Positions 7,663 to 61,714 of a stretch of DNA of 64,000 nucleotides are shown here, in pieces. The translations under genes and the position numbers were made by a program. Numbering within the stretch: the first letter of the stretch is position 1; every line of letters begins with the position of its first letter. The notes beneath the pieces are model-generated. The model saw only the letters and a program-made list of their open reading frames with translations. It was not told where the DNA came from and made no database searches. This DNA is from Squalus acanthias (taxonomy: Eukaryota): contig JASTWF010000069.1 in assembly GCA_030390025.1 (NCBI GenBank), positions 744,001 to 808,000 of the forward strand, given 5' to 3'.

Positions 7663-8028
7663 CTGTATTGTCAGAGGAGTGGAAAGGCGAGACTCCACGA
7701 GAGGTGACAGCACAGGAAGGTTTGTGTGCACAGATTCCATGTCATTACACTTATCCATCGCGTCTGGCAAACCAACCACGAGTTGGAATCTGGATTAATT
7801 ATGGGGAACGGAGATCATCGTCTATAGCCTTTCACTCCAAGGATCACAATCACTCGTTGCCACAGTTTCGCCATCGGACACGGCTGTCTGGAGACCTGAG
7901 AGATGGTGACTGTTCCCTGATTATAAACAACATCACACAGCGAGACGCAGGACCTTATTATTTCAGAATAGAATTTGACAACTGGAATCAGTTTGACTAC
8001 TGGCCTGGAACACAGCTTCATGTTTCTG
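7663..8028 (+). CDS. Siglec V-set exon (copy 1)
   Basis: ctctccccag|CT GTA TTG ... TCT G|gtaagt, 366 nt, open. Siglec Cys pattern and YYFRIE are present. Confidence 0.93.
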
Positions 8029-9297: not shown

Positions 9298-9387
9298 AAA
9301 GTACTTTCTCTTGCGGGACTGTGATTTCTATTTGAACTGATGCCTCAAGTTATATTTATCTAAAAGCATCCATTCTCTGTGTGTTAG

Positions 9388-9681
9388 ATTTCACAGATAA
9401 ACCCAGGATATTCCCTGCTGAAATGATTGCAGGAAAGCGTGTGAACGTAAGCTGCACCTTCAACACCACGTGCACTGGAACAGCACCTGTCTTAACCTGG
9501 GTCAATCACACTGACGTACCCGGGTCAGTCTCAAACAGTGTAACTCAGCATGGCGTCACTCTGACATATACTTCTGTTCTGTCCCTGATTCCATCACTCA
9601 AACACCACGGACAAACTCTCAGCTGCAGAGTCAGATATCCATCTGTTTCATCGGAGCAGACCCTCGCAGTCACTTTGCAAT
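9388..9681 (+). CDS. Siglec C2-set exon (copy 1)
   Basis: gtgttag|AT ... CAA T|gtaagt, 294 nt, open, phase 1/1. Confidence 0.93.
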
Positions 9682-15800: not shown

Positions 15801-18043
15801 CCTCCGACAGTGCAGTGCTCTCTCAGTACTGCCTCTCCGACAGTGCAGCGCTCCCTCAGTATTGCACTTCCGACAGTGCATCATTCCCTCAGTGCTCCCC
15901 CTCAGACAGTGCGGCGCTCCCTCAGTACTGCACCCCGACAATGCGGCGCTCCCTCAGTACTGCCCCTCCGACAGTGCAGCGCTCCCTCAGTAATGCCCTT
16001 TCGACAGCGCAGCGCTAACTCAGTATTGCCCCTCCAACAGTGCGACGCTCTCTCAGTACTGCCCCTCCGATAGTGCGGCGCTCCCTTAGTACTGCCCCTC
16101 CGACAGTGCAGCGCTCCATCAGTAATGCCCCACTGAAAGTGCGGCGCTCCCTCAGTACCGCCCCTCCGACAGTGCGGCGCTCCCTCAGTACCGCCTCTCC
16201 GACAGTGCAGCACTCCCACAGCACTGCCCCCTCCGCCAGTGCGGTGCTCCCTCACTACTGCCCCTCCGCCAGTGCGGCGCTCCCTCAGTACTGCCCCTCA
16301 GACAGTGCAGCCTACCCTCAGTAGTGCCCCACGGACAGTGCGGCGCTCCCTCAGTACTGCCCCTCCGACAGTGCAGCGCTCCCTCAGTACTGCCCCTCCG
16401 ACAGTGCGCGCTCCCTCAGTACTGCCCCTCCGACAGTGCGGCGCTCCCTCAGTACTGTCCCTCCGAAAGTGCGGCGCTCCCTCAGTACTGCCCTCCGACA
16501 GTGCGGCGCGCCCTCAGTTCGGCCACTCCGACAGTGCGACGCTCCCGCAGTACTACCCCTCCGACAGTGCGGCGCTCCCTCAGTACTGCCCCCTCTGCCA
16601 GTGCGGCGCTCCCTCAGTACTGCCCCTCCAATAGTGCGGCGCTCACTCAGTACTGCCTCTCAGACTGTGCAGCCTACCCTCAGTAATGCCCCTCGGACAG
16701 TACGGCGCTCCCTCAGTACTGGTCCTCCGACAGTGCGGCGCTCCCTCAGTACTGACCCACCGACTATGCGGCACTCCGACAGTACGGCGCTCCCTCAGTA
16801 CTGACCCTCCGACAGTGCGGCACTTCATCAGTAATGCCCCTCTGAGAGTTCGGCGCTCCCTCAGTACTGCCCCTCGGACAGTGCGGCGCTCCCTCAGTAC
16901 TGCCCCTCCGACAGTGCGGCGCTCCATCAGTAATGCCCCTCTGACAGTGCGGCGCTCCCTCTTTACCACCCCTCCGACTGTGCAGCGCTCCCTCAGTACT
17001 GGCCCTCCGATAGTGCGGCGCTCCCTCAGTACTGCCCCTCCGACAGTGCGGCGCTCCCTCATGACTGCCCCCTCCGCCAGTGCGGCGCTCCCTCAGTACT
17101 GCCCCTCCGACAGTGCGGCGCTCACTCAGTACTGCCCCTCCGACAGTGCAGCACCAACTCAGTACTGCCCCTCAGACAGTGCAGCGTACCCTCAGTACTG
17201 CCCCTCCGACAGTGCGGCGCTCCCTCAGTACCGCCCCTCCGACAGTGCGGCACTCCCTCAGTACTGCCCCTCCGACAGTGCGGCGCTCCCTCATTACTGC
17301 CCCCTCCGCCAGTGCGGCGCTCCCGCAGTACTGCCCCTCCGATAGTGCGGCACTCACCCAGTACTGCCCCTCAGACAGTGCAGCCTACCCTCAGTACTGC
17401 CCCTCGGACAGTGCGGCGCTCCCTCAGTACTGCCCCTCCGACAGTGCGGCGCTCCCTCAGTACTGCCCCTCCGACAGTGCGGCACTCCCTCAGTACTGCC
17501 CCTCCGACAGTGCTGCGCTCACTCAGTACTGCCCCCGGACAGTGCAGCGCTCCTTCAGTACTGCCCCTCCGAAAGTGCGGCGTTCCCTCAGTACTGCCCC
17601 TCAGACAGTGCAGCGCTCACTCAATACTGCCCCTCCGACAGTGTAGCGCTCCTTCAGTACTGCCCCTCCGACAGTGCGGCGTTCCCTCAGTACTGCCCCT
17701 CCGACGGTGCGGCGCTCCATCAGTAATGCCCCTCTGAAAGTGCGGCGCTCCCTCAGTACTGCCCCTCCGACTGTGCGGCGCTCACTCAGTACTGCCCCTC
17801 CGACAGTGCAGCTCTCCCTCAGTACCTGCCCCTCTGATAGTGCGGCGCTCCCTCATTCCTGCCCCTCCGACAGTGCGGCGTTCCCTCAGTACTGTCCCTC
17901 CGACAGTGCTGCACTCCCTCTGTACTGCCCCTCCGACAGTGCAGCGCTCCCTCAGTATTGCCCCTCCGACAGTGCGGCGCTCCCTCAGTGCAGCCATTCC
18001 GACAGTGCAGCGCTCCCTCAGTACCGCCCCTCCGACAGTGCAG
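9885..18043. repeat. 8.2-kb 33-bp minisatellite array with higher-order blocks, growing out of a SINE remnant (9730-9890)
   Basis: About 245 units. Starts at gaaagacggcacctcc of the SINE and ends at the same CR1 junction as 3346. Confidence 0.97.
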
Positions 18044-21520: not shown

Positions 21521-21886
21521 CTGTATTGTCAGAAGAGTGGAAAGGCGAGACTCCACGAGAGGTGACAGCACAGGAAGGTTTGTGTGCACAGATTCCATGT
21601 CATTACACTTATCCATCGCGTCTGGCAAACAAACCACGAGTTGGAATCTGGATTAATTATGGGGAACGGAGATCATGGTCTATAACCTTTCACTCCAAGT
21701 ATCACAATCACCTGTTGCCACAGTTTCACCATCGGACCCGGCTCTCTGGAGACCTGAGAGATGGTGACTGTTCCCTGATTATAAACAACATCACACAGCG
21801 AGACGCAGGACCTTATTATTTCAGAATAGAATTTGACAACTGGAATCAGTTTGACTACTGGCCTGGAACACAGCTTCATGTTTCTG
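21521..21886 (+). CDS. Siglec V-set exon (copy 2)
   Basis: Same splice sites as copy 1. Six aa differences from copy 1; essential Arg retained. Confidence 0.93.
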
Positions 21887-23247
21887 GTAAGTGCTGGGTT
21901 ATAATTACTCCACAATTCACGCTCAACAGTCAGTGGGAAATAACATAAACTGTGGCGGTTACACATTAACACAAAACACAGCTTATTATAACACAGCGTC
22001 TGATTATCAATAACCTGGCGATACCTTCCAGTTCAGTCCTAAAGCAACCTCTAATACTCACTTTATTATCAATGATTGAATGTCTTGACTGTGTCCATCA
22101 TTGTTATCAGGTTATCGACTCCCATCTATCTCTCTAATCGTGTTTAAAAGTCTTACATACAGACAAAAGACAGTCTCACATTTCTCCAGCACCTTTCACC
22201 ACCTCAGGAGGTCCCAAAGCGCTTCACAGACAATGCAGTTATTTTTTTGAAGTGTGGTCACTGTTGTAATGTAGGAAACGTGGCAGCTAGTTTGTGCACA
22301 GCAAGCTCCCACAAACAGCAATGTAATAATGACCAGATCATTTGGTTTAACACTTCAAAAGTACTTCATTGGCTGTGAAGCACTTTGGGTCATCCTGAGG
22401 TCATGAAATGCACTGTGGGAATGCAAGTCTTTCTTTTAAGTGTTGGTTGAGGGATAATTGCAAATTGTTTCTGTTCTGCCGTGGAGAGGATTTAATTTAA
22501 CATTGCAGGAGATCTCTGAGCGAGTGGAGAGCCAGTGTTCCTGGGGCTGTGAACAGGTCCTCCACCCCCACCCAGTATAGTCAATTCAAGGGTGTCGGAG
22601 AGAAAGTGTATTAAGCTCAGTGACACGACACTCCGCCAATACTGGAAATAGGAAACAATATCTTCTTACAGATTCACACAAAGTTACATAGAGTCTGCCG
22701 CACAGAAAGAGGCCATTCAGCACAACTGGTCCATCCCGCTGTTTATGCTCCACACCAGCCTCCTCCCAACCCTTTTCATCTCACCCCATCAACATATCCT
22801 TCTATTCCTTTCTCCCTCGTGTGTTTATTCAGCTTCCCCTTAAATGCATCTCTGCTATTCGCCTCAACCACTCCCTGTGGTAGCGAGTTCCCCATTCTCA
22901 CCACTCTCTGGGGAAAGAAGTTTCTCCTGAATTCCCTATTGGATTTATCAGTGACTATCTTATATTGATGGCCCCTAGTTCTGGTCTCCCCCACAAGTGG
23001 AAACATCTTCTCTACGTCTACCCTATCGAAACCCTTCATAATTTTAAAGACCTCTATCAGGTCACCCCTCAGCCTTCTCTTTTCTAGAGAAAAGAGCCCC
23101 AGCCTGTTCAATCTTTCCTGATCGTTGTAACCTCTCAGTTCTGGTATTATCCGTGTAAAAGTACTTTCTCTTGCGGGACTGTGATTTCTATTTGAACTGA
23201 TGCCTCACGTTATATTTATCTAAAAGGTTCCATTCTCTGTGTGTTAG

Positions 23248-23541
23248 ATTTCACAGATAAACCCAGGATATTCCCTGCTGAAATGATTGCAGGAAAGCGT
23301 GTGAACGTAAGCTGCACCTTCAACACCACGTGCACTGGAACGGCACCTGTCTTAACCTGGGTCAATCCCACTGACGCACCCGGGTCAGTCTCAAACAGTG
23401 TAACTCAGCATAGCGTCACTCTGACATATACTTCTGTTCTGTCCCTGATTCCATCACTCAAACACCACGGACCAACTCTCACCTGCAGAGTCAGATATCC
23501 ATCTGTTTCATCGGAGCAGACCCTCGCACTCACTGTGCAAT
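23248..23541 (+). CDS. Siglec C2-set exon (copy 2)
   Basis: Same splice sites, 294 nt, open. Confidence 0.93.
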
Positions 23542-23744: not shown

Positions 23745-24336
23745 CACTTCCAACAGTGCGGCGCTCCCTCAGTACTGTCCCTCCGACAGTGCAGCACTCC
23801 CTCAGTACTGCCCTTCCGACAGTGCAGCGCTCCCTCAGTACTGCCCCTCCGACATTGCGGCGCTCCCTCAGTACTGCCCCTCCGACATTGCGGCGTTCCC
23901 TCAGTACTGCCCCTCCGACATTGCGGCGCTCCCTCAGTACTGCCCCTCCGACAGTGCGGCGCTCCCTCAGTACTGCCCCTCCGACAGTGCAGCTCTCCCT
24001 CAGTAATGCCCCTCCGACAGTGCGGCGCTCCCTCAGTAATGCCCCTCCGACAGTGCGGCGCTCCCTCAGTACTGCCCCTCCGACAGTGCGGCGCTCCCTC
24101 AGTACTGCCCCTCCGACAGTGCGGCGCTCCCTCAGTACTGCCCCTCCGACAGTGCAGCGCTCCCTCATTACTGCCCCTCCGACAATGCGGCACTTCCTCA
24201 GTACTGCCCCTCCGACAGAGCGGCGCTCCCTCAGTACTGCCACTCCGACAGTGTGGTGCTCCCTCAGTACTGCCCCTCCGACAGTGCGGCGCTCCCTCAG
24301 TACTGACCTTCCGACAGTGCGGCGCTCCCTCAGTAC
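23745..24336. repeat. 33-bp minisatellite (~18 units) after C2 copy 2
   Basis: Same unit; preceded by a SINE remnant at 23590-23745. Confidence 0.95.
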
Positions 24337-25307: not shown

Positions 25308-25972
25308 TTTACAGGACAGAAATTATTTTGTGATTCACGTGAGATGGTGTGTGTACGTGAGAAGTGAGCTGGATCAAGTCATTTCCCTCAAGCCTGTGAT
25401 CGCTCCCTGAGTAAAGATGACTTGATTCGCGCAGTGCACTGTACTGGCTACTTCATCTCACCCCATCAACACATCCTTCTATTCCTTTCTCCCTCGTGTG
25501 TTTATCCAGCTTCCCCTTAAATGCATCGCTGCGATTCGCCGCAACCACTCCCTGCGGTGGCGAGTTCCACATTCTCCCCACTCTCTGGGTAACGAGCAGA
25601 AGTGATTATTAAGCGGGGCGTGTAACGGGAGTCCGATCCGATAGCGCCCCAACTGCACAACTGCCCGTCATGAATTTTCACCCTGTGATAAATGTTTCCA
25701 GATCATTCTACAGCACAACCCTGCACACGTCAATAGATCAGGCCCTTGGACAGGGTGTAAAACAGTCCACTAACGCCAGCGTTCCACCCTGAGGAGCGAG
25801 TTACAATTGCTCCCTCTCACAGTGTTTGCCATGAAATCATTCCTTACAGATGTTTTAGTCGATGTATGAATGTGACACCAAATATTCCAGTAATATTAAG
25901 CTTGATTGCTGATCGCACAGCGAGGGATCGAAAGCGGAGAGTAAGTCATCGTTTCTTGCTGTATGTTTCCAG

Positions 25973-26166
25973 GCACTCTGCACACGATTCAGATCCTGGG
26001 AATACGAGCTGCGATATTCATTCTCGCCGTCATCGCCACTGTCACTGGGGTTCGCGTCTGGGACCGAAGACCAGCTAAAGGAAGCCGAGAGCCTGTTGAG
26101 AGCTGTGAGGATACGGGAGTCGGGAATCAGCGGCCTGACCACTTATTTCATCGGACAACTGACTAA
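25973..26166 (+). CDS. TM plus short-tail exon of an activating-type Siglec (TLHTIQILGIRAAIFILAVIATVTGVRVWDRR...TTD*)
   Basis: Acceptor tttcttgctgtatgtttccag| in phase 1, compatible with the C2 donor at 23541. Hydrophobic span contains an Arg; the tail has no Tyr. AATAAA at 26868-26873. Confidence 0.75.
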
Positions 26167-26974
26167 AGCCGAGCGCTCGCCCCCACGAGCACACTTCTCA
26201 TTGCTAGAAAAGCGAGGGAAAGAACAAGGGAGAGTCAGAGCCGCCTGCAGCTTATCTTTTATCTCTTTCTCAATCAGTGGGAACGCGCAAAGCTTTGTGA
26301 GTCGTTGAAACATAACCAAATACAAATCCCTTTTGCTAATTTTCAGCATTAAGCTTTGCTAGATTGTAGTTTAATATTAAGTTTTCTAGTTTACAGTTTT
26401 ATTAATTTAGTCTCATTTCTCCTCTGTTAGAATCAGGGGAAAGTCTATTAAAGTCTAGATTTTATTTACAGTGGGAACCCATTGTCCTCTTGTTCCTGGG
26501 TTGCCTTATCTCCATGGAAACAGAAAGCAAGCACCGAAAGAGCTTGTGCTGAGGGTAAAAAGCAGATAAGGGAGGCCCAGAGCCTGTGCCTGGACACAGA
26601 GAACCCGCCGTGCCTATGGTTGGATGGGTTTCTCCACAGTTCCGGCTCTTGGGGGACATCCTGGTGGGTTTGGTCTGGGTCTCAGTGTAGAAGGGCCAGC
26701 AAGGACACCGATCCGGACAGGTGCAGACACGCAGGGGGAGGAGGAGGATCGGGGGAAACGGGCCAGGCCTTCTACTCAAAGGGGGCAACAGCGGGTAATA
26801 CAATTCTCAATCGTACTTTGTAAACTGATGCTCAGATACCGAGTGTATTCGGTCTCACTGCTGCTTCAATAAAATCAGAACTCTTACCAATACGGAGTCA
26901 GCTTCGAACCATTGACCAGACAGTCCACAGGGAATCCAAATCCATTCTTACATAAGAACATAAGAAATAGGAGC

Positions 26975-31058: not shown

Positions 31059-31710
31059 TGTTAGATTCGAATTTGGAGAAACTCTAGACGGAGACGGAAT
31101 TGAGGACAAGAACAAAATTTATTAAAACAACTAAGAGAGACTTGTGCACAAGGGGAGCCACCCAGCTTCCTCAAGCTTGAGGTGCACTCACAAAGGAAAA
31201 ACAGCGGTTCATTCAAGATATACAGTTCTATAAGCAACGCCCACTTACGACAGAATGGGGGCGTACACGTACGAACAACGTCGCCACAGTTACTCTTTAT
31301 TGGCTTTGGTGTTTAGTCACCAAATTAGTGTTATTTAGTTAATTAGTGAAGAGACGCCTTGCAGCCTGCAAAAGTGCCTGTTCCTTGCATTTTACGATCC
31401 CCTTATCACTTTTACTGGTCTCTGATGTTCGATATTCGACCTGGCTTACATCCCTGCTATCTGTTCCCAGCTGCATGTTGTCAGTCTCCATTTTAATTAA
31501 GCCCCATCTTTGAATCTACAGCTAATCCTTACAAGTGCCTTTTTTATGAGAGGCTTAAACATAGTCAAGTATCCCAGAATTCTTTGGGAACTAGCTGGAT
31601 CCTTCAGCTTGTTTAAAACGCCCGAAGTGAGTAGAAAGCTTGGTTGAAGCATGTCCAGTTAACCATTTGCCCCGGTTTGCAGGGCCGCACTCAAATGGGT
31701 TTTGTTCCCG
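31059..31710 (-). mobile_element. Probable truncated LTR
   Basis: Starts abruptly with TGTTAG inside the VNTR; AATAAA on the - strand near 31120. The other end and TSD were not found. Confidence 0.4.
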
Positions 31711-34441
31711 AATCCCGTGTCTGATTAGGGTCCGGGATGGCTGGTTGGAAAGCCCCGGCGCCGCCGCACACTATATTGCTGCACTGGCCCCGGGCGAGTT
31801 GGGGAAAGTGTCGGAATCCCGTGCCGCCTGCCGGGCCGTCGGTCAGCGGGCACGTTATCCGGTATAACTTCGGGCAGGAATGTCGGATCCGGACCTGGTC
31901 AACGGCGCCTGAATGGGGTGGCGGGGCTGAAGAGACCGGGACCGACCCGGTGTAGCTGCGCCTTTGCCCGGCTGGGTGACAGCAGTCAGGCTGCAGACCG
32001 CTTTCCGACTGCTAAATCGGCGGGCCGGCCACCGATCTGCTGGGGGGCGCCGTTTGCGGAAGATGAGGGCAAGCGGCATCGGCCGGTACCAGAACCAGAG
32101 CGGTGGCCCACCGGGGAGCGTGTCGGCAGTCGCCGAAACTTGGCAGGGTGACCCCGCCCGCCCCGCTGGAAAAGGTGCAAAATGCCGCAAAAACCACCCG
32201 GGGAGCTCGAGCCGAGTGGGAAACGCTCATCTGGAAAGCCGCGACATTTTTCAACAAAGTCGTCCATACGAACGAAAATTCTTGCAAAAGTGGCAGAGAC
32301 TGAGTGGGAAAGTGACAAATGGGTAACCAAATGTCAAAGGAACAAATAGTTAACCAAAGTCTCAGAAGTGGGAACTCATTAACTGACCTTTGAAAAGTGA
32401 CAAATGTTTCACCAAATGTCAAAGGGACGACATTTTATAACCTTTTAGTTTGGAATTTTTTTTCCATTTTTGCCCATTTTTCGGGTTTTGGTCAGGCTTA
32501 AAAAACGGCCGCCTGATGCCCGGCAGAGGCCGGGAATTCGCCTCCCTGCGTAAGGGACCGTGTCCGAACCGATTGAGGCCGAGAGACCCGAGTTCAGGCC
32601 GGAAAATATTTTCCCCGAAATCGGCTGAAAATTAAAAAAAAATTCTCTGTCCGTCGGCCGGTGTCGGCGTTCGACTGGGCACCGGGAATCCGCGTCTAAC
32701 GGTGGCAAAACCGCGTGTCTCCGACGCCGGAGTGCGGAGATATGGCCGTTCAAAGTTGTTCCGGAGGTCCGAAGGGATCTGATTTGGCCGCCTGACCGGG
32801 GCTCGGGTGATGATTTCCCGTTGGGGAAGCGAGTTGCTCCCGGCAAATGGTCATGTGCATTTTCTGGCAAGTGTTCAGAACACTGGTTTATGAGTTGGCG
32901 GGCGGGAAATCTTGAATTCAATCGGAAGTCTGGATAGAGATTGGAAAACTGGCTCTTTGCGGGGATTTGATGCTCCTGGTCGGACGGAGTTGGTCTTTCG
33001 AGCCACTGATTTGACATTTGTCATTTCTGCACTCGGGGATTGGCGGGTTACCTGCAGAAAGGTGATCAATGCCGCAGTCAAACGCCTCCCGTTCCGGACT
33101 GCCGTGTCTGATTAGGGTCGGGGATGGCTGGTTGGAAAGCCCCGGTGCTGCCGCTCACTATATTGCTGCGCTGACCCCGGGCGAGTTCGTGAAAGTGTCG
33201 GAATCCCGTGCCGCCTGCCGGGCCGTCGGTCAGCGGGACGGGTATCGTGAATAACTTCGGGCAGGAAGGTCGGATCCGTAGCTGGTCAACGGCGTCTGAA
33301 TGGGCTTGCGGGGCTGAAGAGACCGGGATGGACCCGGTGTAGCTGCGCCTTTGCGCGGCCGAGCGACGGCAGTCAGGCTGCAGACCGCTTTCCGACAGCT
33401 GAGTCGGCGGGTCGGCCACCGATCTTGGTGGCCGAGCGGCCTGGGCAGGCCGGGGGCAAGGGGCATCCAGCGGTACCGGAACGGTGTCAGTGCGACACCG
33501 GGAAGCCGGGTGCCGCTCGCTCCGAGTCCAGCCTGGGTTTTCCCGTTTAAAACGACGGGAATGAGTGCTGCCCTCTGGTGGTGGAATCCTGCCATTGCAG
33601 CTTTTCGTATACAATTACCGTTTGCCCCGGTCGGCGGGGCGGCAGACATACGCCTGACGTTCCGGGCTGGCGTGTCCGATTTCGGTCGGCCATGGCTCGT
33701 TGGAAAGCCCCGGCGATGGCGCACACTATATTGCTGCGCTGGCTCCGGGCCTGTTCGGGAAAGTGTCGGAATCGCCTGCCGCCTGCCGGGCCGTCATTCA
33801 CGGGGGCCGGGTATCGGTTATAACTTCTGGCGGAAGGACGGATCCGCACCGGGTCAACGGCGCCTGACTGCGCTTGCGGGGCTGAAGAGACCAGTACCGA
33901 CCCGGTGCAGCTGCGCCTTTGCCCGGCCGGGTTACGGTAGTCAGGCTGCAGACCGCTTTCCGACTGCTAAATCGGCGGGCCGGTCACCGATCTGCTGGGG
34001 GGCGCCGTTTGCGGAAGCCGAGGGCAAGCGGCATCGGCCGGTACCAGAACCAGAGCGGTGGCCCACCGGGCAGCGTGTCGGCAGGCGCCGAAACTTGGCA
34101 GGGTGACCCCGCCCGCCCCGCTGGAAAAGGTGCAAAATGCCGCAAAAACCACCCGGGGAGCTCGAGCCGAGTGGGAAACGCTCATCTGGAAAGCCGGGAC
34201 ATTTTTCAACAAAGTCGTCCATACGAACGAAAATTCTTGCAAAAGTGGCACAGAGACTGAGTGGAAAAGTGACAAATGGTTAACAAAATATCAATGGGAC
34301 AAATAGTTAACCAAAGTCTCAAAAGTGGGAACTCATTAACTGATCTTTGAAAAGTGACAAATGGTAAACCAAAGAGTCGAAAGTGGGACCTTAGTAACTG
34401 AAATGTGTCAATCCAAAGTCTCAAAGTGATAAATGATGCAT

Positions 34442-39900: not shown

Positions 39901-40585
39901 CGGCGTCTAACTCAGTAACCAAAAATGAAAGACTTGGGTTGCTGGAGAGACTGAGTCCCGGGCTGGGCACATCATTAACCAAAAATGAAAAAGGCCAGGC
40001 TGAGTTTGGACCAGGGCCAACTGATTAACCAAAGTGCACACCGACCGGGCTGACATTGAGTGAGCTGCCCGTGGCTAGGGGGGTAGAAAGCGGCAGAGAG
40101 TCAAAACCCCGAAAATACGGAAGTCCGATGGGATCGGATTTGGCCGCCTTATTAGGGCGGAGTGTGAAGCCTTCCCGCTTGGGGAAGTGAGTTGCTCCCG
40201 GCAAATGGTGATGTGCCAATTCTGGGAAGTGTTCCCGAACCATGGTTAACGAGTTAGCAGGTGGGAAATCATTAACCAAGTCGGAAGTCCGGATGAAGGA
40301 AAAAAAATGCCATTTGCGGCGATTTGGGTGCTCCTGGTCGGACCGAGCTGGCCCTTTGACCCGCTGATTTGACACTTGTCATTTCTGTACTTGGGGGTTG
40401 GCGGGGTGCCCGGAGATTTACGGGAACACGATTTTCAGAACAAATTTTACACAGCGAGTACATTTTGAAAATGCCCGAAAAATGTAACTTTGCTAAAAGG
40501 CTCATTTTATCAAACTTGAGACCTTTCAAAGAGTAATCGAAAGTCATTAAAAATGGTATTGGTGGTTTTTTGACTTTGCTGACTT

Positions 40586-47319: not shown

Positions 47320-47562
47320 TCACTGAAATCTGATCTCTGCGTATTCCGTGCCCTCGTCCTTGTCAACAGTCCCGTCGCCATTGGACAGCTTTAAGAAGTT
47401 GATGCTGGCGTACAGAAGGTCCTCGTGCTTGGCGGGTTGTCCATGTCCAGCATCTCCTCCCGCCCGACCTTCAGAGAGACCCCGGGGAGCTGGTGTCTCC
47501 GCCTCGCTCGTTGCATCACTGGTTACATTCCAGGAGTCAGGAACCGTCTCGCACTGCGAACC
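47320..47562 (-). CDS. Terminal cytoplasmic exon with ITIM (LLYASI) and ITIM-like motif (TEYAEI)
   Basis: tttgctttgtag|GGT..., 80 aa GSQCETV...HEDLLYASINFLKL...EGTEYAEIRFQ then TGA. This is the tail layout typical of CD33-related Siglecs. Confidence 0.92.
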   Translation of the reverse strand, partial: GSQCETVPDSWNVTSDATSEAETPAPRGLSEGRAGGDAGHGQPAKHEDLLYASINFLKLSNGDGTVDKDEGTEYAEIRFQ

Positions 47563-50500
47563 CTACAAAGCAAATGGAAGCACAAGACATTCTCAGGTCA
47601 TTTCCCGGGGCTGATGGGGTGAAATGATTGCACAGACTAACCAGTGTAAGTTGTGGCTGAGTGGGTTTAACACTCGCTCGCTCGTCTCTGAGTCAGAAGG
47701 TCGTTGGTTCGAGTCCCCACTCCAGAGACTTGAGCCCCATAATTCACAAGCTCAGGACATCCCAAAACACTTCAAAGCCAATGAAATACTTCGTGATGTT
47801 GGTTGAGGGATAAAAATTGCTCCTTGACTCTGGGGAGAACTTCCCCTGCTCTTCGCAATATTAGCCATGGGATCTTCCATGTTAACCTTACAGGTTTAAT
47901 GTCTCATCTGAAAAACTGCCCCTACGACGGTGCAGCGCTCCCTCAGTACTGCCCCTCCGACAGTGCGGCGCTCCCTCAATACTGCCCCTCCGACGGTGCA
48001 GCGCTCCCTCAGTACCGCCCCTCCGACAGTGCGGCACTCCCTCAGTACTGCCCCTCCGACAGTGCAGCGCTCCCTCAGTACTGCCACTCCGACGGTGCAG
48101 CGCTCCCTCAGTGCTGCCCCTCCGACAGTGCGGCGCTCCCTCAGTACTGCCCCTCTGACAGTGCGGTGCTCCCTCAGTACTGCCCCTCCGACAGTGCGGC
48201 GCTCCCTCAGTACCGCCCCTCCGACAGTGCAGCGCTCCCTCAGTACTGCCCCTCCGACAGTGCGGCGCTCCCTCAGTACTGCCCCTCCGACAGTGCGGCA
48301 CTCCCTCAGTACTGCCCCTCCGACAGTGCGGTGCTCCCTCAGTACTGACCCTCCGACAGTGCGGCACTCCCTCAGTACTGCCCCTCCGACAGTGCGGTGC
48401 TCCCTCAGTACTGCCCCTCCGACAGTGCGGCGCTCCCTCAGTACTGCCCCTCCGACAGTGCGGTGCTCCCTCAGTACTGCCCCTCCGACGGTGCAGCGCT
48501 CCCTCAGTACTGACCCTCCGACAGTGCAGCGCTCCCTCAGTACTGCCCCTCCGACAGTGCGGCGCTCCCTCAGTACTGCCCCTCCGACAGTGCGGCACTC
48601 CCTCAGTACTGCCCCTCCGACAGTGCGGTGCTCCCTCAGTACTGCCCCTCCGACAGTGCGGCGCTCCCTCAGTACTGCCCCTCCGACAGTGCGGCACTCC
48701 CTCAGTACTGCCCCTCCGACAGTGCGGTGCTCCCTCAGTACTGCCCCTCCGACGGTGCAGCGCTCCCTCAGTACTGATACTGGGGAGTGTCGGCCTGGAT
48801 TATGGGCTCAAGTCTCTGGAGTGGGGACTTGAACCCACGACCTTCTGACTCAGAGTCGAGAGGGAGATTTGTAAACCCACTGAGCCACGACTGACATCTC
48901 AGGCAGAAATTCGTGGGCAACCTGTCTGGGAATCTCCAACACGTGTTGTCTACACCCTGAGATTGAGGCTTCAGACTAAGTGCAAACAGCTTCTGTACCT
49001 GGTGCTTGGCGGAGAGTGGACTGGTGGTCATTGCAATGTCACTGGGCTCTGAAGCTCTCTCCTCAGTCGCTGCCTTTCTCCTGAAATAGCCGAATATCAC
49101 ACTGCGGTTATATCTCAGAGTGTAACGTTACAGCAACTACTGGACTGTCTCTTTAAATCGCTTCTGTCCACAGACATAGAATCACACAGCACAGAAAGAG
49201 GCCATTTCGCCCTTTGTTCCTGTGCTGGCTCTTTGAACGAGCTCTCCAATTAGCCCCACTCCCCCCCTGCTCTTTCCCCACAGCCCTGTGAATTTTTCCC
49301 CTTCAAGTATTTATCCAATTCCCCTTTTGAAAGTCGCTGTTGAATCTGCTTCCACCGCCCTTTCAGGCAGCGCGTTCCTGATCACAACAGCTGGACACTG
49401 AGCCGTGAAAGGCACACTCCAGGTCATAGCGGACGCAGGGACCGCTCACGGGGAGTGGCGTCTGCTGCTGAACCCGAGGGAAACAGTCACTGACTCAAGG
49501 AGAGATGATTGGAGTAAAGATTTAAAATACAATGAAACCTTCGCACTTACTTTCGCACGCACTCGAAGATTACGAATCCAGCCAGTGCAATGCTCAGTGC
49601 GATCCCAGCAGCAAGCAATCCTACTCTCCATTCATTGCCGTCTCCACCTGGAAAAACTGCCATCAATTCATTAATTTTTAGCCATTCATTATCAGGGTGT
49701 GAGCGTTGCTGGCAAGGCCATCCATAGTTGGACGGTGTAAGATTCTAAACACTGTAATTAAACCGCTGCTACCGTCTGGAGATCCAGGTTCAGAATGAAT
49801 TGTGAATTGGTTACAGACAGATTCAAAATGTAGGAGGTGAGCATGTGTTCTTTGTTTGTGAAGACACAGAATGGTGGAAGTCAGCAGGGGGTCCCTTGCC
49901 TGGTGGTCAGTCTGGTCCTTAGTTTGTAAGGCCACATGGACAGGAAGGAGAAACACCGGGTGAAGAGGAAGTCCCGTCCCATCCCCCCACACACCTCACA
50001 GGAACATGAACGTGTCATGCAGGAGGAACGCCAATCAGGGAAGGTTTAGAGTGAAACTGACCTATCAGAGGGATGGCAGACAGTGATATACAAGGGGGGC
50101 TGGCAGAAAGGCCCTAGAAAGAGTGACCCAGAGGCGGGGAATTCAGAACACAGAAGGTACAAAGAAGACAGAACGCAAGAGCAGACGGACAGAGGAAGCT
50201 GGCCAGTCTATGTTTCAATTTTAAACTTTTCTGTATTGATCACGCAGAGATAAAGGAGTATGTATGAAAGTCGGACATGGAGCTTAGATATTGTTAAAAG
50301 GGGGACTTTTATGTACGGTTGACTTGGAATATAAATCGCCCAGAGGTAGCGGGTAAATTGCTGGGCCGTACTTTAATGTACGGGTAAATTGGGCGCATAT
50401 TGATTGCGATTGTACACTTGAATTTTGAACTGTAGTGTGAATAAAGACCAATTATATTGATCACATACTTGTCTCTCATTGTTACGCTTATTCGTAATTC

Positions 50501-53500: not shown

Positions 53501-56500
53501 GAGAGGCAGTAATGAGGGAGCGCTGCACTGTCGGAGGGACAGCTCTGAGGGGGTGCCGCACTGTCAGAGGGGCATTACTGATTGAGCGCCGCACTGTCGG
53601 AGGGGCAGTACTGAGGGAGCGGCGCACTGTCGGAGGGGCAGTACTGAGGGAGTGCCGCACTGTCGGAGGGGCAGTACTGCGGGAGTGCCGCACTGTCAGA
53701 GGGGCATTACTGAGGGAGCGCCGCTCTGTCGGATGGGCAGTACTGAGGGAGCGCCGCACTGTCGGAGGGGCAGTACTGAGTGTGCACCGCACTGTCGGAT
53801 GGGCAGTACTGAGGGAGCGCCGCACTGTCGGAGGAGCAGTACTGAGTGTGCACCGCACTGTCGGAGGGGCAGTACTGAGGGAGCGCCGCACTTTCAGAGG
53901 GGCAGTACTGAGGGAACGCCGCACTGTCGGAGGGGCAGTACTGAGGGAGCGCCGCACTGTCGAGGGGCGGTACTGAGGGAGCGCTGCACTGCCGGAGGGG
54001 CAGTACTGAGGGAGCGGCACACTGTCGGAGGAGCAGTACTGAGGGAGTGCCGCACTGTCGGAGGGGCAGTACTGAGGGAGTGCCGCACTGTCGGAGGGGC
54101 AGTACTGCGGGAGCGCCGCACTGTCAGAGGGGCATTACTGCGGGAGCGCCGCACTGTCGGAGAGGCAGTAATGAGGGAGTGCCGCACTGTCGGAGGGGCA
54201 GTACTGAGGGAGCGCCGCACTTTGAGAGGGACAGTACTGAGGGAACGCCGCACTGTCGGAGGGGCAGTACTGAGGGAGCGCCGCACTGTCGGAGGGGCAG
54301 TACTGATGGAGCGCTGCACTGTCGGAGGGGCAGTACTGAGGGAGCACCGCACTGTCAGAGGGGCAGAACTGAGGGACCGAAGCAGTGTCGGAGGGTCAGT
54401 ACTGAGGGAGCGCCGCACTGTCGGAGGGGCAGTACTGAGGGAGCGCCGCACTGTCGGAGGTGCCGTCTTTCACATGAGATATTAACCCGAGGCACCGTCT
54501 GTTCTCTCAGGTAGATGTAAAAGATCCCATGACACTATTCAACAAAGAGTCCTGTCTGTAAAATACAGATGATCTTGTCATCGGAACATTGCTGCTTGTG
54601 GGATCTTGCTGTGCGCAAAGTAGACATTCACGGGTAATGTAGAATTAAGGATGTCCTTACTTACATTGCACAGTGAGTGCGAGGGTCTGCTCCGATGAAA
54701 CAGATGGATATCTGACTCTGCAGGTGAGAGTTTGTCCGTGGTGTTTGAGTGATGGAATCAGGGACAGGACAGAAGTATATGTCAGAGTGACACCATGCTG
54801 AGTTACACTGTTTGAGACTGACCCGGGTACGTCAGTGGGATTGACCCAGGTTAAGACAGGTGCTGTTCCATTGCACGTGGTGTTGAAGGTGCAGCTTACG
54901 TTCACACGCTTTCCTGCAATCATTTCAGCAGGGAATATCCTGGGTTTATCTGTGAAATCTAACACACAGAGAATGGATCCTTTTAGATAAATATAACGTG
55001 AGGCATCAGTTCAAATAGAAATCACAGTCCCGCAAGAGAAAGTACTTTTAACAGGATTATACCAGAACTGAGAGATTACAACGATTAGGAAAGATTGAAC
55101 AGGCTGGCGCTCTTTTCTCTAGAAAAGAGAAGGCTGAGGGGTGACCTGATAGAGGTCTTTAAAATTATGAAGGGTTTCGATAGGGTATACGTAGAGACGA
55201 TGTTTCCACTTGTGGGGGAGACCAGAACTAGGGTCCATCAATATAAGATAGTCACTGATAAATCCAATCGGGAATTCAGGAGAAACTTCTTTCCCCAGAG
55301 AGTGGTGATAATGGGGAACTCGCTACCACAGGGAGTGGTTGAGGCGAATAGCAGAGATGCATTTAAGGGGAAGCTGGATAAACACATGAGGGAGAAAGGA
55401 ATAGAAGGATATGTTGATGGGGTGAGATGAAGAGGCGTGGGAGAGGCTAGTGTGGAGCATAATCACCGGGATGGACCAGTTGTGCTGAATGGCCTCTTTC
55501 TGTGTGGCAGACTCGATGTAACTTTGTGTGAATCTGTAAGAAGATTATGGCCCAGAAATTGATCTCGCTCTGTTCCCGCGGGGGTAAGCCTTTCCCGCGA
55601 TGTCTCACCTCGCTTATGCTTTTTCAGATCCAGCTCGCACGAACTTGATGTTCCAGACATCAGCTGTGCTGGGCTTGCGTATCCCAGCGGCGTAGTGAAT
55701 TCGTGCGAGCTGTGGGATCACGTGACTCAGTTAGAGCCAATGGCAGCACACCATCTTCCATTCATAAGTCTCACAGCATGGCGGTGAAATCTATGAATCT
55801 TACACCCCCCCAAAATAACAGCTAAACCTCAATTAAATTAAAAAAAAAAACCATCACATTAATAAAATAAGTATAGTTAATTAAATTAACCATTTTAAAT
55901 AAAAAATTACATTTTTGAAAAAATTTAAAATCTTTTAAAAAGTTATAAAAATAAACTTACCTGTCTTTAAAGTCTCTAAAAAAGATATACCTGTAAAAAA
56001 AAATTCAAAAAAATACTTAATTCACTACTTACCTTCTTAAAAGCGGGTCTTACTCCTCCTTTTTACATTTCCAAAATCTTCCCTACTTACCTGCGCGTCC
56101 AAAGCATGAAGTGCACAGCGTGCGCGCAGCCTGTAGCGCGCACGCGATGCACCCAGGCCCCGCCCCCTTTTCAGAAGAGCAATTGCCGGTTTTCAGCGCA
56201 TGCGCAGGGCATGCAGAAAACCGGCAATTGGAGTGGGAATACGCGAGAGTATGCAGTGCGTACTCTCGCGTCCCGGGATCAATTTTCGGCCCATTGTTTC
56301 CTATTTCCAGTATTGGCAGAGTGTCTGTCACTGAGCTTAATACACTTTCTCTGCGAGACCCTTGAATTCACTATACTGGGTGGGGGTGGAGGATCTGGTC
56401 ACAGCCCCAGGAACACTGGCTCTCCAATCGCTCAGAGATCTCTGCCAATGTTAAATTAAATCCTCTCCACGGCAGGACAGAAACAATTTGCAATTATCAC

Positions 56501-59500
56501 TCAACCAAAACATAAAAGAAAGACTTGCATTGCTACAGCGCATTTCATGACCTCAGGACATCCCAAAGCGCTTCACAGCCAATGAAGTACTTTTGAAGTG
56601 TTAAACCAGATGATCTGGTCATTATCACATTGCTGTTTGTGGGAGCTTGCTGTGCGCAAATTGGCTGCCACGTTTCCTACATGACAACAGTGACCACACT
56701 TCAAAAAAAGAACTTCATTGTCTGTGAAGCGCTTTGGGACCTCCTGAGGTGGTGAAAGGTGCTGGAGAAATGTGAGTCTGTCATTTGTTTGCATGTAAGA
56801 CTTTTAAACACGATTAGAGAGATAGATGGGAGTCGATAAACTGATAACAATCATGGACACAGTCAAGACATTCAATCATTTATAATAAAGTGAGTATCAG
56901 AGGTTGATTTAGGACTGAACTGGAAGGTATCGCCAGGTTATTGATAATCAGACGCTGTGTTATAATAAGCTGTGTTTTGTGTTAATGTGTAACCGCCGCA
57001 GTTTATGTTATTTCCCACTGACTGTTGAGCGTGAATTGTGGAGTAATTATAACCCAGCACTTACCAGAAACATGAAGCTGTGTTCCAGGCCAGTAGGTAT
57101 AGTTATCACTGTTGTTAAATTCTATTCTGAAATAATAAGTTCCTGCGACTCGCTGTGTGATGTTGTTTATAATCAGGGAACAGTCACCATCTCTCAGGTC
57201 TCCAGACAGCCGGGTCCGATGGCGAAACTGTGACGACTCACGATTGTGATCCTTGGAGTGAAAGGCTATAGACCATGATCTCTGTTCCTCATTATTAATC
57301 CAGATTCCAGCTCGCGGTTGGTTTGCCAGATACGATGGATAAGTGTAATGACATGGAATCTGTGCACACAAACCTTCCTGTGCTGTCACCTCTCGTGGAG
57401 TCTCGCCTTTCCACTCCTCTGACAATACAGCTGGGGAGAGAAATATCAATATTTAGCACTGGATGGCTTGTCGCTCCACTGGACTCGATATCCACCCCCT
57501 CCGTCACTGGCGCACAGTGTCTGCAGTGTGGACCATCTACAGGACACACAAGGAACTCACCAAGGTTACATTGACAGCACCGCCCTCCCCTGCGACCTCT
57601 ACCACCCAGAAGGACAAGAGCTACTGAGACAACACAATCCAAGAATGAATATCAAACACTGCGCACCGTGTTCTGTGATTGGGGAGCATTATAGTGAACC
57701 CACATGTCGGACAGACTCATAGTCACCTTGCCCGTGGACATCGCACCCGCCTGTCCTCATGCCTTTTCCTCAGCACACAATGTTTCTGTATGTGAAGACA
57801 ATTCTTGACCCAACAGATGGCTCCATCAACCCAACGGATGGAAGGGAATCCTCGGCACGGGAGTAGACAAGTTCATTCTATAGTGGCTAACAGACCTCAG
57901 GACCCTGTTAAGTGAAGCAAGTCTTCCACCCAACACAATGCCTAAATGACGCACCAATTGAGGTATATTCTGTGCTGATTTACAAGGCAGGAACAGTGAA
58001 TTAGGATCCGTCAGAACTCACGCCACTATCTCCATTCTGAATCACTTTCGTCATAGAGTCATAGAGTCATAACGGCACAGAAGGAGGCCATTCGGCCCAT
58101 CGAGTCCGTGCCGGCTCTCTGTAGAGCAATCCAGTCCGTCCCAATCCCCCGCTCTATCCCCGTAGCCCTGCAAGTTTATTTCCCTCAAGTGCCTATCCAG
58201 TCTCCCCTTGAAAAGATTGAGTGTCTCCGCTTCCACCACTTCCATCAGCAGCGAGTTCCAGGTCCTCACCACTCGTTGCATAAAAAAGATTTTCCTCACA
58301 ATCCGCTGCTCTCTTGCCCAAAACCTTAAATCTGTGTCCCCTAGGACTTGTACCATCAACTAGTGGGAACACCCTTTCCCCGTCTAGCCTATCCAAACCC
58401 ATCATAATCTTGTACACCTCTATCAAATCACCCCTCAACCTCCTTTGCTCTAATGACAACAAATCCAGCTTCTCCAACCTGTCCTTGTAGCTAAGATCCC
58501 CCATCCCCGGAACCATTCTGGTAAATCTCCTCTGCACCCTCTCAAGGGCCTTCACATCCTTCCTAAAGTGTGGTGACCAGAACTGGATGCAATACTCCAG
58601 TTGTGGCCTAACCAGTGCTTTATAAAGCTTCAGCATAACCTCTCTACTTTTGTACTCAATACCTCTATTTTTGAAGACCAAGATCCCATATGCTTTGCTA
58701 ACCACTCTCTCAAAATGTCCCGCCACCTTCAGGGACCTATGCACATTAACTCCCAGGTCCCTCTGTCCCTGCACACGGTTTAAAACTGCCATTAAGTGTA
58801 TATTGCCTCTCCCTGTTCCTTCTGACCAAAATGCATCACCTCATACTTCTCTGTATTAAATTCCATCTGCCACTTGTCTGCCCATTCTGCTAGCCTTTCT
58901 ATGTCCTGTTGCAGTCGATTGGTCTCATCACTGTTTGCCACACCCCCAAGTTTGGTGTCGTCGGCAAATTTAGAAATTCTACTCTGTATTCCAATATCCA
59001 GGTCATTGATAGATATAAGAAAAAGCAGTTGCACCAGCACTGACCCTTGGGGAACACCACTGTCTACCATCCTCCAGTCTGAAAAACAGCCATTTACCAC
59101 ATCTCGCTGTTTTCTGTCCATAAGCCAATTCCTTATCCAAGCTGCCACTGACCCACCTATTCCATGAGCCTCAATTTTGTTAACCAGCCTTCTATGTGGT
59201 ACTTTGTCAAACGCCTTCCGAATATCCATGCAGGCAACATCCATTGCATTCCCTTCATCAATCCTCCTTGTTACTTCACAAAAAATTCAGTTACATTAGT
59301 CAAACACGATCTGCCTTTTACAAATCCGTGTTGGCTCTCCTTAATTAGCTTAAACATCTCCAAGTGTCCGATAATTTTTTCCTTGATTATTGTTTCTAAA
59401 ACTACACCCACCAACGATGTTATACTGACCGGCCTGTAGTTATTAGAATTGTCCGTACACCCTGTCTTTAACAATGGTGTCACATTTGACACTTTCCAAT

Positions 59501-61714
59501 CCTTAGGCACCTGCTCTGCATCTAGGGAAGATTGGAAAATTATGGCAAGCCCTTCCGCTATCTCCTCCCCCAATTCCCTTAGCAAGCCTGACCTTCTTGT
59601 TTGCTCTTCAGCCCTCTTGATTGTCTAAGCTGATTCAGTCTACTTGGCGAATTTTGGATTCTCATTGACCCACCTATTCCATGAGCCTCAATTTTGTTAA
59701 CCAGCCTTCTATGTGGTACTTTGTCAAACGCCTTCCTAAAATCCATGTAGACAACATTCATTGCATTCCCTTCATTTACCGTCCCTGTTACTTCATCAAA
59801 AAATTCAATTATATTAGTCAAACATGATAGCCTTTTACAAATCTGTGTTGGCTCTCCTTAATTAGCTTAAACATCTGCAATTATCCCATAACTTTTTCCT
59901 AGCAAGCCTAACTTTCTTGTTTGCTCTTCAGCCCTTCTGATTGTCTAAGCTGATAGAGTCTACTTGGCGAATTTTGGATCCACATTGTACAAGGAATCTC
60001 TTTGGATTCTCATTGACTGCAGAATCTCTTTGGATCCTCATTGTCTAAGCAAACTCTTTGGATCCTCATTGTCTAAGGAATCTCTTTGGATTCTCATTGT
60101 CTAAGGAATCTCTTTGGATTCTCAATGTCTAAGGAATCACTTTTGATTCTCATTGTCTAAGGAATCTCTTTGGATTCTCATTGTCTAAGGAATCTCTTTG
60201 GATTCTCATTGTCTAAGGAATCACTTTGGATTCTCATTGTCGAAGGAATCTCTGTGGATCCTCATTGTCTAAGGAATCTCTGTGGATCCTCATTGTCTAA
60301 GGAATCTCTCTGGATTCTCATTGTCTAAGGAATCTCTTTGGATCCTCATTGTCTAAGGAATCTCTTTGGATCCTCATTGTCTAAGGAATATCTTTGGATT
60401 CTCATTGTCTAAGGAATCTCTTTGGATTCTCATTGTCTAAGGAATCTCTTTGGATTCTCATTGTCTAAGGAATCTCTTTGGATTCTCATTGTCTAAGGAA
60501 TCTCTTTGGATTCTCATTGTCTAAGGAATATCTTTGGATTCTCATTGTCTAAGGAATCTCTTTGGATTCTCATTGTCTAAGTAATCTCTTTGGATTCTCA
60601 TTGTCTGAGGGATTATTTTAGTTCCAACAATATTGCTGTAGGGTGATTCCGATACAGCATTGTAGACTGACTTGTCCCCAAGCTCAGCACTGGCCCTACT
60701 CCAGCAGACTCTTTGAAGCACAGGAGCGAATCGCCTCTCGCCTGAGCGCTGTATGTGTCGGAGGTGCAGAGGCATTGGGTTCATGACTTTTGCAGGCGGT
60801 CTCGCTGCGTGTTTGTTAAAACTGAACTATGCCTCACACTAAACGTCGGTGGCAAACACACCTTGTTCCGTGTTCGTCTGAAATATTCATGATTTCAGCA
60901 GGGCTGTGGGGAAAGAGCGGGGGAGTGGGATTAATTGGATAGCTCTATCAAAGAGCCGGCACAGGCACGATGGGCAGAATGGCCTCCTTCTGTGCTGTAT
61001 CATTCTATGATTCTATTAAATGTAACTGCACAGCAGATCAGAGGCAAACAGAGAAACTGTATATATGACACCTTTATATACTTCCTGTCTTGTTTGCTTG
61101 TTATCTTAACCACATCTTGCACCCTTACCACGGTTGCTATCATCCTGAGAATGGGCAGTAATTGTGAGGACTGAACTGCCTGTCTATTCTCAGCACTGCT
61201 GTGCTGTCATCATGGCGAATTGTAACTAAAATTTGGATCTCTGTAATACACCAATTCTGGCCTCTTGTCCATCCCCGAGTTTTGGAAGGGAATTCCAGAG
61301 CTTATGGTCTGGACGTCTGAAGGCACGGCCGCCATTGGTGGATTGATGGAAATCGGGGAGGCACAAGAGGCCTGAATGGGTGGAACGCAGAGATCTCGGA
61401 GGCTTGCAGGGCTGGAGGAGGTTACAGAGATAGTGAGGCAGGGGGCGAGGCCATGGAGCGATTTGAAGACGAGGATGAGGATTTTAAATTTGGGGCGTTG
61501 CCGGACCGGGAGCCAATGTAGATCAGCGAGCGCAGGGTTGAGGAGTGAACGGGACTTGGTGCGAGTTAGGACACTGGGTCACTGCTGAATTTGGCCCCCA
61601 ATCATAGCTCAATAAGAATGATCTTTCACAAAGACTATTAACCATAAGTATGTCCGAGCTGACGATGATATTACCTTGGAGGAGTGACAGGAGGAAGTAA
61701 GATTTTCTGATCAT
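47320..61714 (-). CDS. Complete CD33-like inhibitory Siglec gene (leader-V-C2-TM-cyt1-cyt2), join of 6 exons, 373 aa
   Basis: Exons of 40+366+294+97+82+243 = 1122 nt. All introns are GT-AG with matching phases (1,1,1,2,0) and there are no stops. The protein runs MIRKSYFLLSLLQAVLSEEW...YYFRIE...TM...LLYASI...TEYAEIRFQ*. Orthology is not assigned. Confidence 0.9.
47750..48890 (-). mobile_element. tRNA-derived DeuSINE-type SINE with an internal 33-bp minisatellite expansion (47915-48776)
   Basis: A box GTGGCTCAGTGG and B box GGTTCAAGTCC on the - strand, then ~26 units, then the AGATGAGACATTAAACC...GATCCCATGG core. Confidence 0.8.
48999..49080 (-). CDS. First cytoplasmic exon (RKAATEERASEPSDIAMTTSPLSAKHQ)
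   Basis: ctatttcag|G AGA AAG ... CAC CAG|gtacag, 82 nt, phase 2 in and phase 0 out, exactly bridging the TM and ITIM exons. Confidence 0.85.
49551..49647 (-). CDS. Transmembrane exon of the inhibitory Siglec (GDGNEWRVGLLAAGIALSIALAGFVIFECVRK)
   Basis: gtttttccag|GT...CGAAA|gtaagt, 97 nt, phase 1 in and phase 2 out. Hydrophobic span followed by a basic stop-transfer. This frame is not in the ORF track. Confidence 0.88.
49736..50535 (+). mobile_element. 800-bp solo LTR
   Basis: TGTAAG...CTTACA termini; TSD ACGG/GCGG; AATAAA at 50440. Antisense to the Siglec. Confidence 0.8.
50865..51365 (+). mobile_element. L2/CR1-group LINE RT fragment
   Basis: NYRPISLLS, QFGFR, LDIKAAFDRV, PQGS. Confidence 0.88.
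51366..52599 (-). mobile_element. CR1 copy 'b' in the C2-TM intron of the inhibitory gene
   Basis: Same 5' junction with the minisatellite as at 3347 and 18044; has its own 3' tail and flank. Confidence 0.93.
52600..54462. repeat. 33-bp minisatellite (reverse orientation), ~56 units
   Basis: AGGGAGCGCCGCACTGTCGGAGGGGCAGTACTG units followed by the SINE core at 54462-54620. Confidence 0.97.
54665..54958 (-). CDS. Siglec C2-set exon (copy 3)
   Basis: gtgttag|AT TTC ACA ... CAA T|gtaagt, 294 nt. DFTDKP...VSC.FNTTC.GT.P.LTW...HHGQTLTC.V, including the extra Cys expected for the V-C2 inter-domain disulfide. Confidence 0.95.
55549..56292. mobile_element. MITE family A in the V-C2 intron of the inhibitory gene
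   Basis: GGCCCAGAAATTGA / TCAATTTTCGGCCC TIRs; absent at the paralogous sites ~8800 and ~22660. Confidence 0.82.
57065..57430 (-). CDS. Siglec V-set exon (copy 3, inhibitory gene)
   Basis: ctctccccag| ... TCTG|gtaagt, 366 nt, phase 1/1. Motifs EGLC..IPC, GDCSL.I and YYFRIE with the essential F-strand Arg. Confidence 0.95.
58051..59890 (-). mobile_element. CR1 copy 'a' in the leader-V intron (58051-59580), plus a locally duplicated fragment
   Basis: Extends further 5' (NYRPVSITS, SQHGFVKGRSCLTN) than the other copies; (TATGACTC)n tail at 58051. Confidence 0.9.
59975..60608. repeat. 28-bp VNTR (CTCATTGTCTAAGGAATCTCTTTGGATT), ~22 copies
   Basis: Direct inspection. Confidence 0.95.
61675..61714 (-). 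CDS. Signal-peptide exon of the inhibitory Siglec (MIRKSYFLLSLLQ/A)
   Basis: ggacaATG with A at -3. Ends CAAG|GTAATA in phase 1 and joins the V exon to give ...LLQAVLS-EEW, a plausible signal peptide. An upstream acceptor (ctttctctttcag) would start the exon at 61756. Confidence 0.8.

Follow-up and report, generated by a model that had tools for sequence, protein, structure and literature searches.

Does a shark Siglec signal through an ITAM-bearing adaptor, and if so, where did it obtain the membrane anchor to do so? The question is raised by a 64,000-nucleotide stretch of the Squalus acanthias genome (contig JASTWF010000069.1, positions 744,001 to 808,000; hereafter the window), in which an exon encoding an arginine-bearing transmembrane (TM) segment lies behind Siglec-type immunoglobulin exons. 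A first-pass annotation had taken this Arg-TM exon for a candidate docking site of an ITAM adaptor, captured from another receptor. Here, we report that the exon probably forms the 3′ end of an activating Siglec gene, the likely counterpart of an ITIM-bearing Siglec gene encoded by the opposite strand, and that an ITAM adaptor, with FcR-gamma as the foremost candidate, is predicted to dock there.

Results

Two Siglec-type genes oriented tail to tail

The window contained three Siglec-type V+C2 cassettes, A and B on the + strand and C on the − strand, all of whose V and C2 exons were open in phase 1 with AG/GT ends (Table 1). Gene C was complete, comprising a leader, V, C2, an uncharged TM exon and two tail exons, and was oriented tail to tail with the + strand gene. 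Among 2507 six-frame segments, the HMMs for leader, uncharged TM, ITIM tail and Arg-TM exons each matched once; as the single leader match belonged to gene C and none was found for the + strand gene within the window, the leader of the latter lies outside the window or is missing.

Table 1 Features of the Siglec-type locus in the window
Feature	Position	Strand	Evidence
V-set exon A (tandem cassette; possibly same transcription unit)	7663..8028	+	
C2-set exon A	9397..9681	+	
Siglec-type V-set exon B, with F-strand Arg and extra Cys	21521..21886	+	
C2-set exon B	23257..23541	+	
33-bp satellite, end of similarity between activating and inhibitory genes	23749..24336	.	
Terminal exon (short stalk, TM with Arg, tail lacking Tyr, stop)	25973..26166	+	Sequence, HMM of relatives
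Hydrophobic stretch I5-V26, 22 residues	25987..26052	+	Hydropathy
TM Arg codon CGA	26005..26007	+	Sequence; kept in 21/21 relatives
22 extra tail codons and stop, past the end of the longest relatives; contains GTGAGG at 26105	26098..26166	+	
Last exon of gene C: ITIM LLYASI and ITSM-like TEYAEI	47320..47562	-	
First cytoplasmic exon, gene C	48999..49080	-	
Uncharged TM exon, gene C	49551..49647	-	
C2-set exon C	54665..54949	-	
V-set exon C	57065..57430	-	
Leader exon of inhibitory gene C (coding part); sole leader found in window	61675..61714	-	HMM

The ectodomain resembled that of known Siglecs. The best solved relatives of the V domain were Siglec-5, MAG, CD33 and Siglec-8 (E 5e-13 to 2e-11), and both Pfam V-set and Ig_CD22 passed the cut-off there. 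YYFR of V exon B aligned to YFFR of Siglec-5 and YYFR of MAG, and its F-strand arginine is one that we take to be the essential Siglec arginine. Siglecs carry an extra V-domain cysteine, lack the F-strand cysteine and place a partner cysteine in C2, a pattern that the alignment recovered, with LCAQIPC and GDCSL aligned with the cysteines of Siglec-5 and MAG, and CTFNTTC contained in C2. The C2-set domain, single TM and type I topology were likewise those of a Siglec, with the leader of the + strand gene not in the window.

The same 33-bp satellite lay 3′ of each C2 exon (arrays at 1-3344, 9886-18041, 23749-24336 and 52602-54460). As the window starts with this satellite and the LINE seen after cassettes A and C, a further cassette probably lies upstream. 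The V-C2-V-C2 series on the + strand (7663-9681 and 21521-23541), all in phase 1 and with one TM exon, could encode either a receptor of four Ig domains or two cassettes used alternatively. Only one of 126 typed relatives showed this order, V-V-C2 being common. Elsewhere, an orphan copy of the sequence preceding the V cassettes, with the V exon missing, occupied 42197-42694, and an LTR element at 34444-36915, with LTRs 98.7% identical, carried a 675-codon frame with DUF7041 and integrase but no match to reverse transcriptase. A GC-rich array of ~2-kb units, 85-92% alike, surrounded this element (31662-40416), and Rfam and tRNA scans of the window gave no matches.

The terminal exon encodes an arginine-bearing membrane segment and a tyrosine-free tail

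As annotated, the Arg-TM exon was an in-frame terminal exon behind the V and C2 exons. Its acceptor, CAG at 25970-25972, was preceded by pyrimidines at 15 of 20 bases, compared with 11-14 for correctly placed Ig, TM and first-tail acceptors, and it opened in phase 1, matching the phase-1 donor of C2 exon B at 23541. It translated as TLHT-IQILGIRAAIFILAVIATVTGV-RVWDRR...TD-stop, with TAA at 26164-26166, the TM and short tail being encoded in one exon. The arginine occupied position 7-8 of the best hydropathy window, and position 5-8 in relatives when windows of 21-23 residues were used, or 2-8 with 19-residue windows, by which two of the four relatives examined had it at position 2. An acidic residue closed the TM at its C-terminal end, Asp in the window and Glu in all 21 relatives. 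The tail, previously put at ~40 residues without tyrosine, numbered 37 residues after V26 and contained none. An HMM of the relatives scored 67.7 bits on the exon, its sole such match among the 2507 six-frame segments, although this match is not independent as the model was built with the window exon included. On sequence grounds, the exon is a real and intact one that encodes a conserved Arg-bearing membrane segment.

Two features of the preceding intron deserve mention. A full consensus donor, GTAAGT, at 25941-25946, 32 bases upstream of the acceptor and too near to pair with it, could affect inclusion of the Arg-TM exon; once the four known donors were set aside, GTAAGT words on the + strand numbered only six. 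In addition, intron sequence at 25761-25907 matched part of the chimeric Scyliorhinus torazame model P0002 (44% over 50 residues), which suggests that the flank of the exon is also old.

The module is conserved at the C-terminus of shark Siglec models

A search with V exon B yielded 112 proteins of 161 candidates, all from cartilaginous fish, and seven shark Siglec models ended in a segment 55-61% identical to the Arg-TM exon, whose score against each of five relatives was reached by 0 of 1000 shuffles. After this set was enlarged by a region search (4 of 8 candidates), a profile search (10 of 4754) and cluster look-ups, the module formed the C-terminal end of 21 of 170 collected proteins, a collection that includes three unrelated matches and many isoforms or paralogs. 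Twenty of the carriers were Siglec models and one was of CD2/SLAM type; 13 came from Carcharodon carcharias, three each from S. canicula and S. torazame, and one each from Chiloscyllium punctatum and Mustelus asterias. All of these sequences derive from automated RefSeq annotation, and some, such as P0002, are evident chimeras.

Conservation of the arginine and the frame, on which the first-pass annotation had staked its proposal, was borne out in these shark protein models: the TM arginine was identical in all 21 relatives, and thus in 22 of 22 sequences with the window, and the segment was intact at the carriers' C-termini. Over 11 distinct sequences (the window and ten other cores), 13 of 29 columns were invariant, including ILGIRA. 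The relatives terminated 4-12 residues after the TM, S. canicula having isoforms with 5- and 12-residue tails, and none of the 21 carried a Tyr motif there. The module was not seen in models of rays, Heterodontus, Heptranchias, Pristiophorus, Cetorhinus, Rhincodon, Stegostoma or Hemiscyllium, an absence that weighs little because many models end after C2.

The putatively activating and the inhibitory ectodomains are close kin

Comparison of cassettes B and C revealed no mismatch in the 350 bases before V, 30 in the 366 bases of V, 4-5% in the intron and 7 in the 285 bases of C2, corresponding to 21 of 121 differing residues in V and 4 of 94 in C2; the similarity stopped at the satellite 3′ of C2. 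Approximately 26 of the 30 V changes altered a residue and clustered mid-domain and at the domain end, and we considered positive selection in V, for which there was a trend only (pN 0.092, pS 0.049; Fisher p 0.16, not significant). The + strand gene thus combines a basic TM residue, no ITIM and an inhibitory partner with a near-identical ectodomain, as expected of an activating paired Siglec.

In a tree of 124 V+C2 rows, which like all our trees comprised cartilaginous fish only, window cassettes A, B and C formed one clade (100/98), with a Pristiophorus japonicus protein as sister (100/89). Judged by their sequences, the activating and inhibitory copies of the window are each other's closest kin, the pattern of paired receptors. 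The activating label required nine changes on this tree, at least eight of them forced by starred branches, a count based on labels assigned by pattern match, with 56 rows unlabelled and cassette A assumed activating, and one that chimeric gene models could inflate. A single activating clade was rejected (p-AU 1.3e-6) for a 47-row set from which ray sequences, rows lacking a label or a complete V, duplicates, P0002 and cassette A had been dropped. Together, the nine changes and the rejected clade point to one conserved TM exon repeatedly paired with lineage-specific ectodomains; through duplication or gene conversion, these ectodomains would time and again have been joined to one or the other tail type. 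The sister placement of the Pristiophorus protein hints that the window comes from a squalomorph shark, in which case the exon would be older than the squalomorph-galeomorph split.

Origin of the exon and its occurrence in a SLAM-type model

The earlier observation that the exon bears no similarity to the inhibitory TM exon held at every level, and homology between the two was rejected for DNA, protein and profile alike. Shuffled sequences scored as high as the Arg-TM exon against the TM exon of gene C in 763 of 1000 cases (DNA) and 643 of 1000 (protein); the HMMs of the two families cross-scored at -1.8 to 1.9 bits, compared with 60-90 within a family; and hhalign gave a probability of 0.1%.

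Support for the suggestion of exon capture came from M. asterias XP_078073575.1, a CD2/SLAM-type model annotated as SLAM family member 9-like, which also terminates in the module. Its ectodomain matched CEACAM and CD2 structures and Ig clusters of the Atlas, one of them labelled SLAM family member 8, and its identity to shark Siglec domains did not exceed about 30%. Its TM was identical to the window at 19 of 29 positions and to the Siglec-linked copies at 15-20, the latter sharing 20-28 among themselves, and it had the Thr-Leu start and the Thr at column 24 in common with the window. In this single automatic model, the identity pattern suggests an early split of the Siglec and SLAM lines rather than a recent jump, and ancient exon shuffling would account for the module in both Siglec and CD2/SLAM genes. 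The capture event is thus probably old. The 29 columns are too few to give the direction of sharing, and a search with the exon alone against 1.84 billion representatives gave three weak matches, all of them long unrelated repeat proteins, which we rejected as donors. The exon likewise found no match in the PDB, no Pfam family and no usable ESM Atlas match, and its profile hit one chance endoglucanase in the PDB.

We also considered that the SLAM-linked copy might reflect faulty annotation, with a stray exon included or exons wrongly joined, the module being Siglec-specific and having arisen inside the Siglec cluster. Only one of the ten profile matches among 4754 candidates had a non-Siglec carrier, and that carrier is a single-member cluster beginning partway into the V domain. 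However, the copy is intact and in frame with every invariant residue present, and it differs from the Siglec-linked copies of its own order (17-18/29) as much as the window copy does, which together suggest a separately maintained exon; moreover, XP_078073575.1 lies on a 140.6 Mb contig, whereas the Mustelus Siglec models lie on contigs of 82.9 and 128.0 Mb. We regard an artefact as doubtful; the module seems to be common to Siglec and SLAM-type genes.

A longer tail and the state of the window copy

The module of the RefSeq shark Siglec-7/12/13/14-like or CD33-like models (e.g. XP_041037150.1, XP_038669862.1 and XP_072409577.1) and of XP_078073575.1 matched the window at 16-19 of 29 residues, but their tails counted 4-12 residues compared with 34 after the equivalent Trp in the window, and the Siglec-type carriers began four residues before the window exon start. 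At the end point of the longest relatives the window reads GAG (26098-26100), followed by 22 further residues, the simplest reading of which is that an older stop was lost there. P0002 and P0118 both end in N-S-stop, an ending that, from the genetic code, might arise if the T-V-K codons present in longer tails were read in another frame.

The possible internal donor noted earlier, CT/GTGAGG at 26105, was present as the only GTRAG word in the exon, such words occurring at 1.36 per kb in the window. Its proposed role in altering the tail is probably irrelevant, as it lies past the stop of all relatives and no homologous tail exon follows on the + strand; because both sit past the relatives' stop, the longer tail and this donor look lineage-specific. 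Splicing onto a downstream ITIM exon, which would have overturned the activating assignment, found no candidate on the + strand of the window, where tblastn and tail HMMs matched gene C exons only. The interval from 26.2 to 47.3 kb contained 57 candidate acceptors, of which three yielded a loose Tyr word in phase and none a resemblance to Siglec tails.

Beyond the exon, polyA-type words occurred at 26447 and 26868, and a repeat at 26184-26240 and 26562-26793, also found at 43485-43775, started 18 bases past the stop. Derivation of the tail extension from this repeat was rejected, since the similarity begins only at 26184.

These peculiarities could mean that the window copy is decaying or unexpressed while the exon family is functional elsewhere. 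Read-through beyond the relatives' stop, a Cys-to-Arg change at TM column 27 unique among the 11 sequences, the shortened exon start, the nearby repeat, the consensus donor word ahead of the acceptor and the lack of a leader in the window would all fit such decay. Nevertheless, in all five + strand exons the frame is open, the ends are AG/GT and the phases agree, and no invariant TM residue has been lost, which makes decay improbable.

Discussion

Predicted adaptor docking

The adaptor-docking reading of the TM arginine is well supported by its invariance in the relatives, the short Tyr-free tails and the ITIM-bearing twin nearby. C2 exon B would splice onto the Arg-TM exon, the arginine would form a salt bridge with the Asp pair of an adaptor, and sialoglycan binding would trigger Syk-type signalling. 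Basic TM residues pair in this way with adaptor Asp pairs, and FcR-gamma prefers an arginine in the N-terminal TM segment (position 3 in FcalphaRI) and DAP12 a central lysine (position 9 in KIR) (PMC1440944). Under this rule FcR-gamma is favoured over DAP12, because the residue is always Arg and at position 5-8; yet the same position, deeper than that of FcalphaRI and near that of KIR, leaves the adaptor choice unsettled. For the partner, we predict an FcR-gamma or zeta-type chain with about an even chance, consider the lack of any partner doubtful and DAP12 unlikely, and regard another adaptor as highly improbable.

The TM residue of Siglec-14 is an arginine. Reviews of activating Siglecs describe it as a 'positively charged residue' and list all human activating Siglecs with DAP12 (PMC13358205, PMC6288428, PMC8198044, PMC13233462), so that the shark receptor might couple to DAP12 like Siglec-14, -15 and -16, the three human cases; the window arginine at position 7-8 is also near the central site that DAP12 requires. 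This coupling is a minor candidate, as Lys-to-Arg exchange in KIR reduces DAP12 assembly to 15% (PMC1440944) and the shark residue is Arg in all 22 sequences, within the outer third of the hydrophobic run. Alternatively, the receptor may be a non-signalling decoy, adhesion or endocytic Siglec competing with its ITIM twin for ligand, its arginine marking the outer membrane edge or serving trafficking. Consistent with this, about 18 hydrophobic residues follow the arginine in relatives, nearly a helix's worth, and the SLAM-type model has an identical motif-free end. However, the six or seven residues ahead of the arginine are mostly aliphatic, and ILGIRA is invariant while downstream TM columns vary, which a mere anchor would not need, making such a function quite unlikely and leaving docking of an ITAM adaptor as our preferred reading.

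Implications

The shark genes are already present as automatic models; what seems to emerge is a likely activating class paired with an ITIM Siglec, and sharing of its module with a SLAM-type gene. More tentatively, we speculate that sharks own a portable activating cassette, an LGIR-type TM and stub-tail exon shuffled between Siglec and CD2/SLAM genes before the modern shark orders split, coupled to FcR-gamma rather than DAP12 and re-fitted with the ectodomains of ITIM genes, with satellites as swap points. If true, this would be an FcR-gamma-coupled Siglec, and Siglec pairing would have been invented independently and much earlier than in primates. Paired Siglecs have been described chiefly in primates and are interpreted as an evolutionary answer to pathogens that mimic sialic acid (PMC6288428); a conserved activating class in sharks would mean that pairing evolved independently, and at an early stage, in jawed vertebrates. 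Because sharks belong to the most ancient lineage possessing adaptive immunity, their module also allows the pairing rule of Arg with FcR-gamma and Lys with DAP12 to be put directly to the test there. Within the open-access literature, judged by title and abstract opening, no paper on shark Siglecs was found.

Comparison with known receptor systems

Like the shark pair, the primate paired Siglecs (Siglec-5/14 and Siglec-11/16) each consist of an ITIM gene and a partner that encodes a short tail and a basic TM residue, both with near-identical N-terminal V/C2 domains and homogenised flanks (PMC5701461, PMC13358205). Primate and shark pairs differ in that SIGLEC11/16 are arranged head to head and the shark genes tail to tail, and in that the shark activating TM forms a family separate from the inhibitory one, its adaptor being only predicted. 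Activating KIRs have TMs resembling those of their inhibitory twins (PMC6557307), in contrast to the Arg-TM exon and the TM of gene C.

The likeness to LILRA, FcalphaRI, GPVI and NKp46 drawn in the first-pass annotation stands at the functional level only, because the NxxR motif of such receptors (PMC6557307, PMC2413239) is absent. Membership of this type was rejected: Leu replaces Asn three residues before Arg in 22 of 22 sequences, no DYT-like motif precedes the TM, and the arginine lies deeper; nor did any NxxR-type receptor appear among the profile, 50%-representative or PDB search matches. In other respects, the NxxR-type TMs of LILRA, FcalphaRI, GPVI, NKp46, OSCAR and Xenopus FCRL/SLAM (PMC6557307, PMC4536121, PMC2413239) parallel the shark module in their early arginine, the acidic residue at the inner TM end, a single exon that encodes both the activating TM and the short tail (PMC2413239) and their presence in more than one Ig family, SLAM among them. 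Alongside NxxR, the shark module would be a second example of a TM module that recurs in unrelated Ig families.
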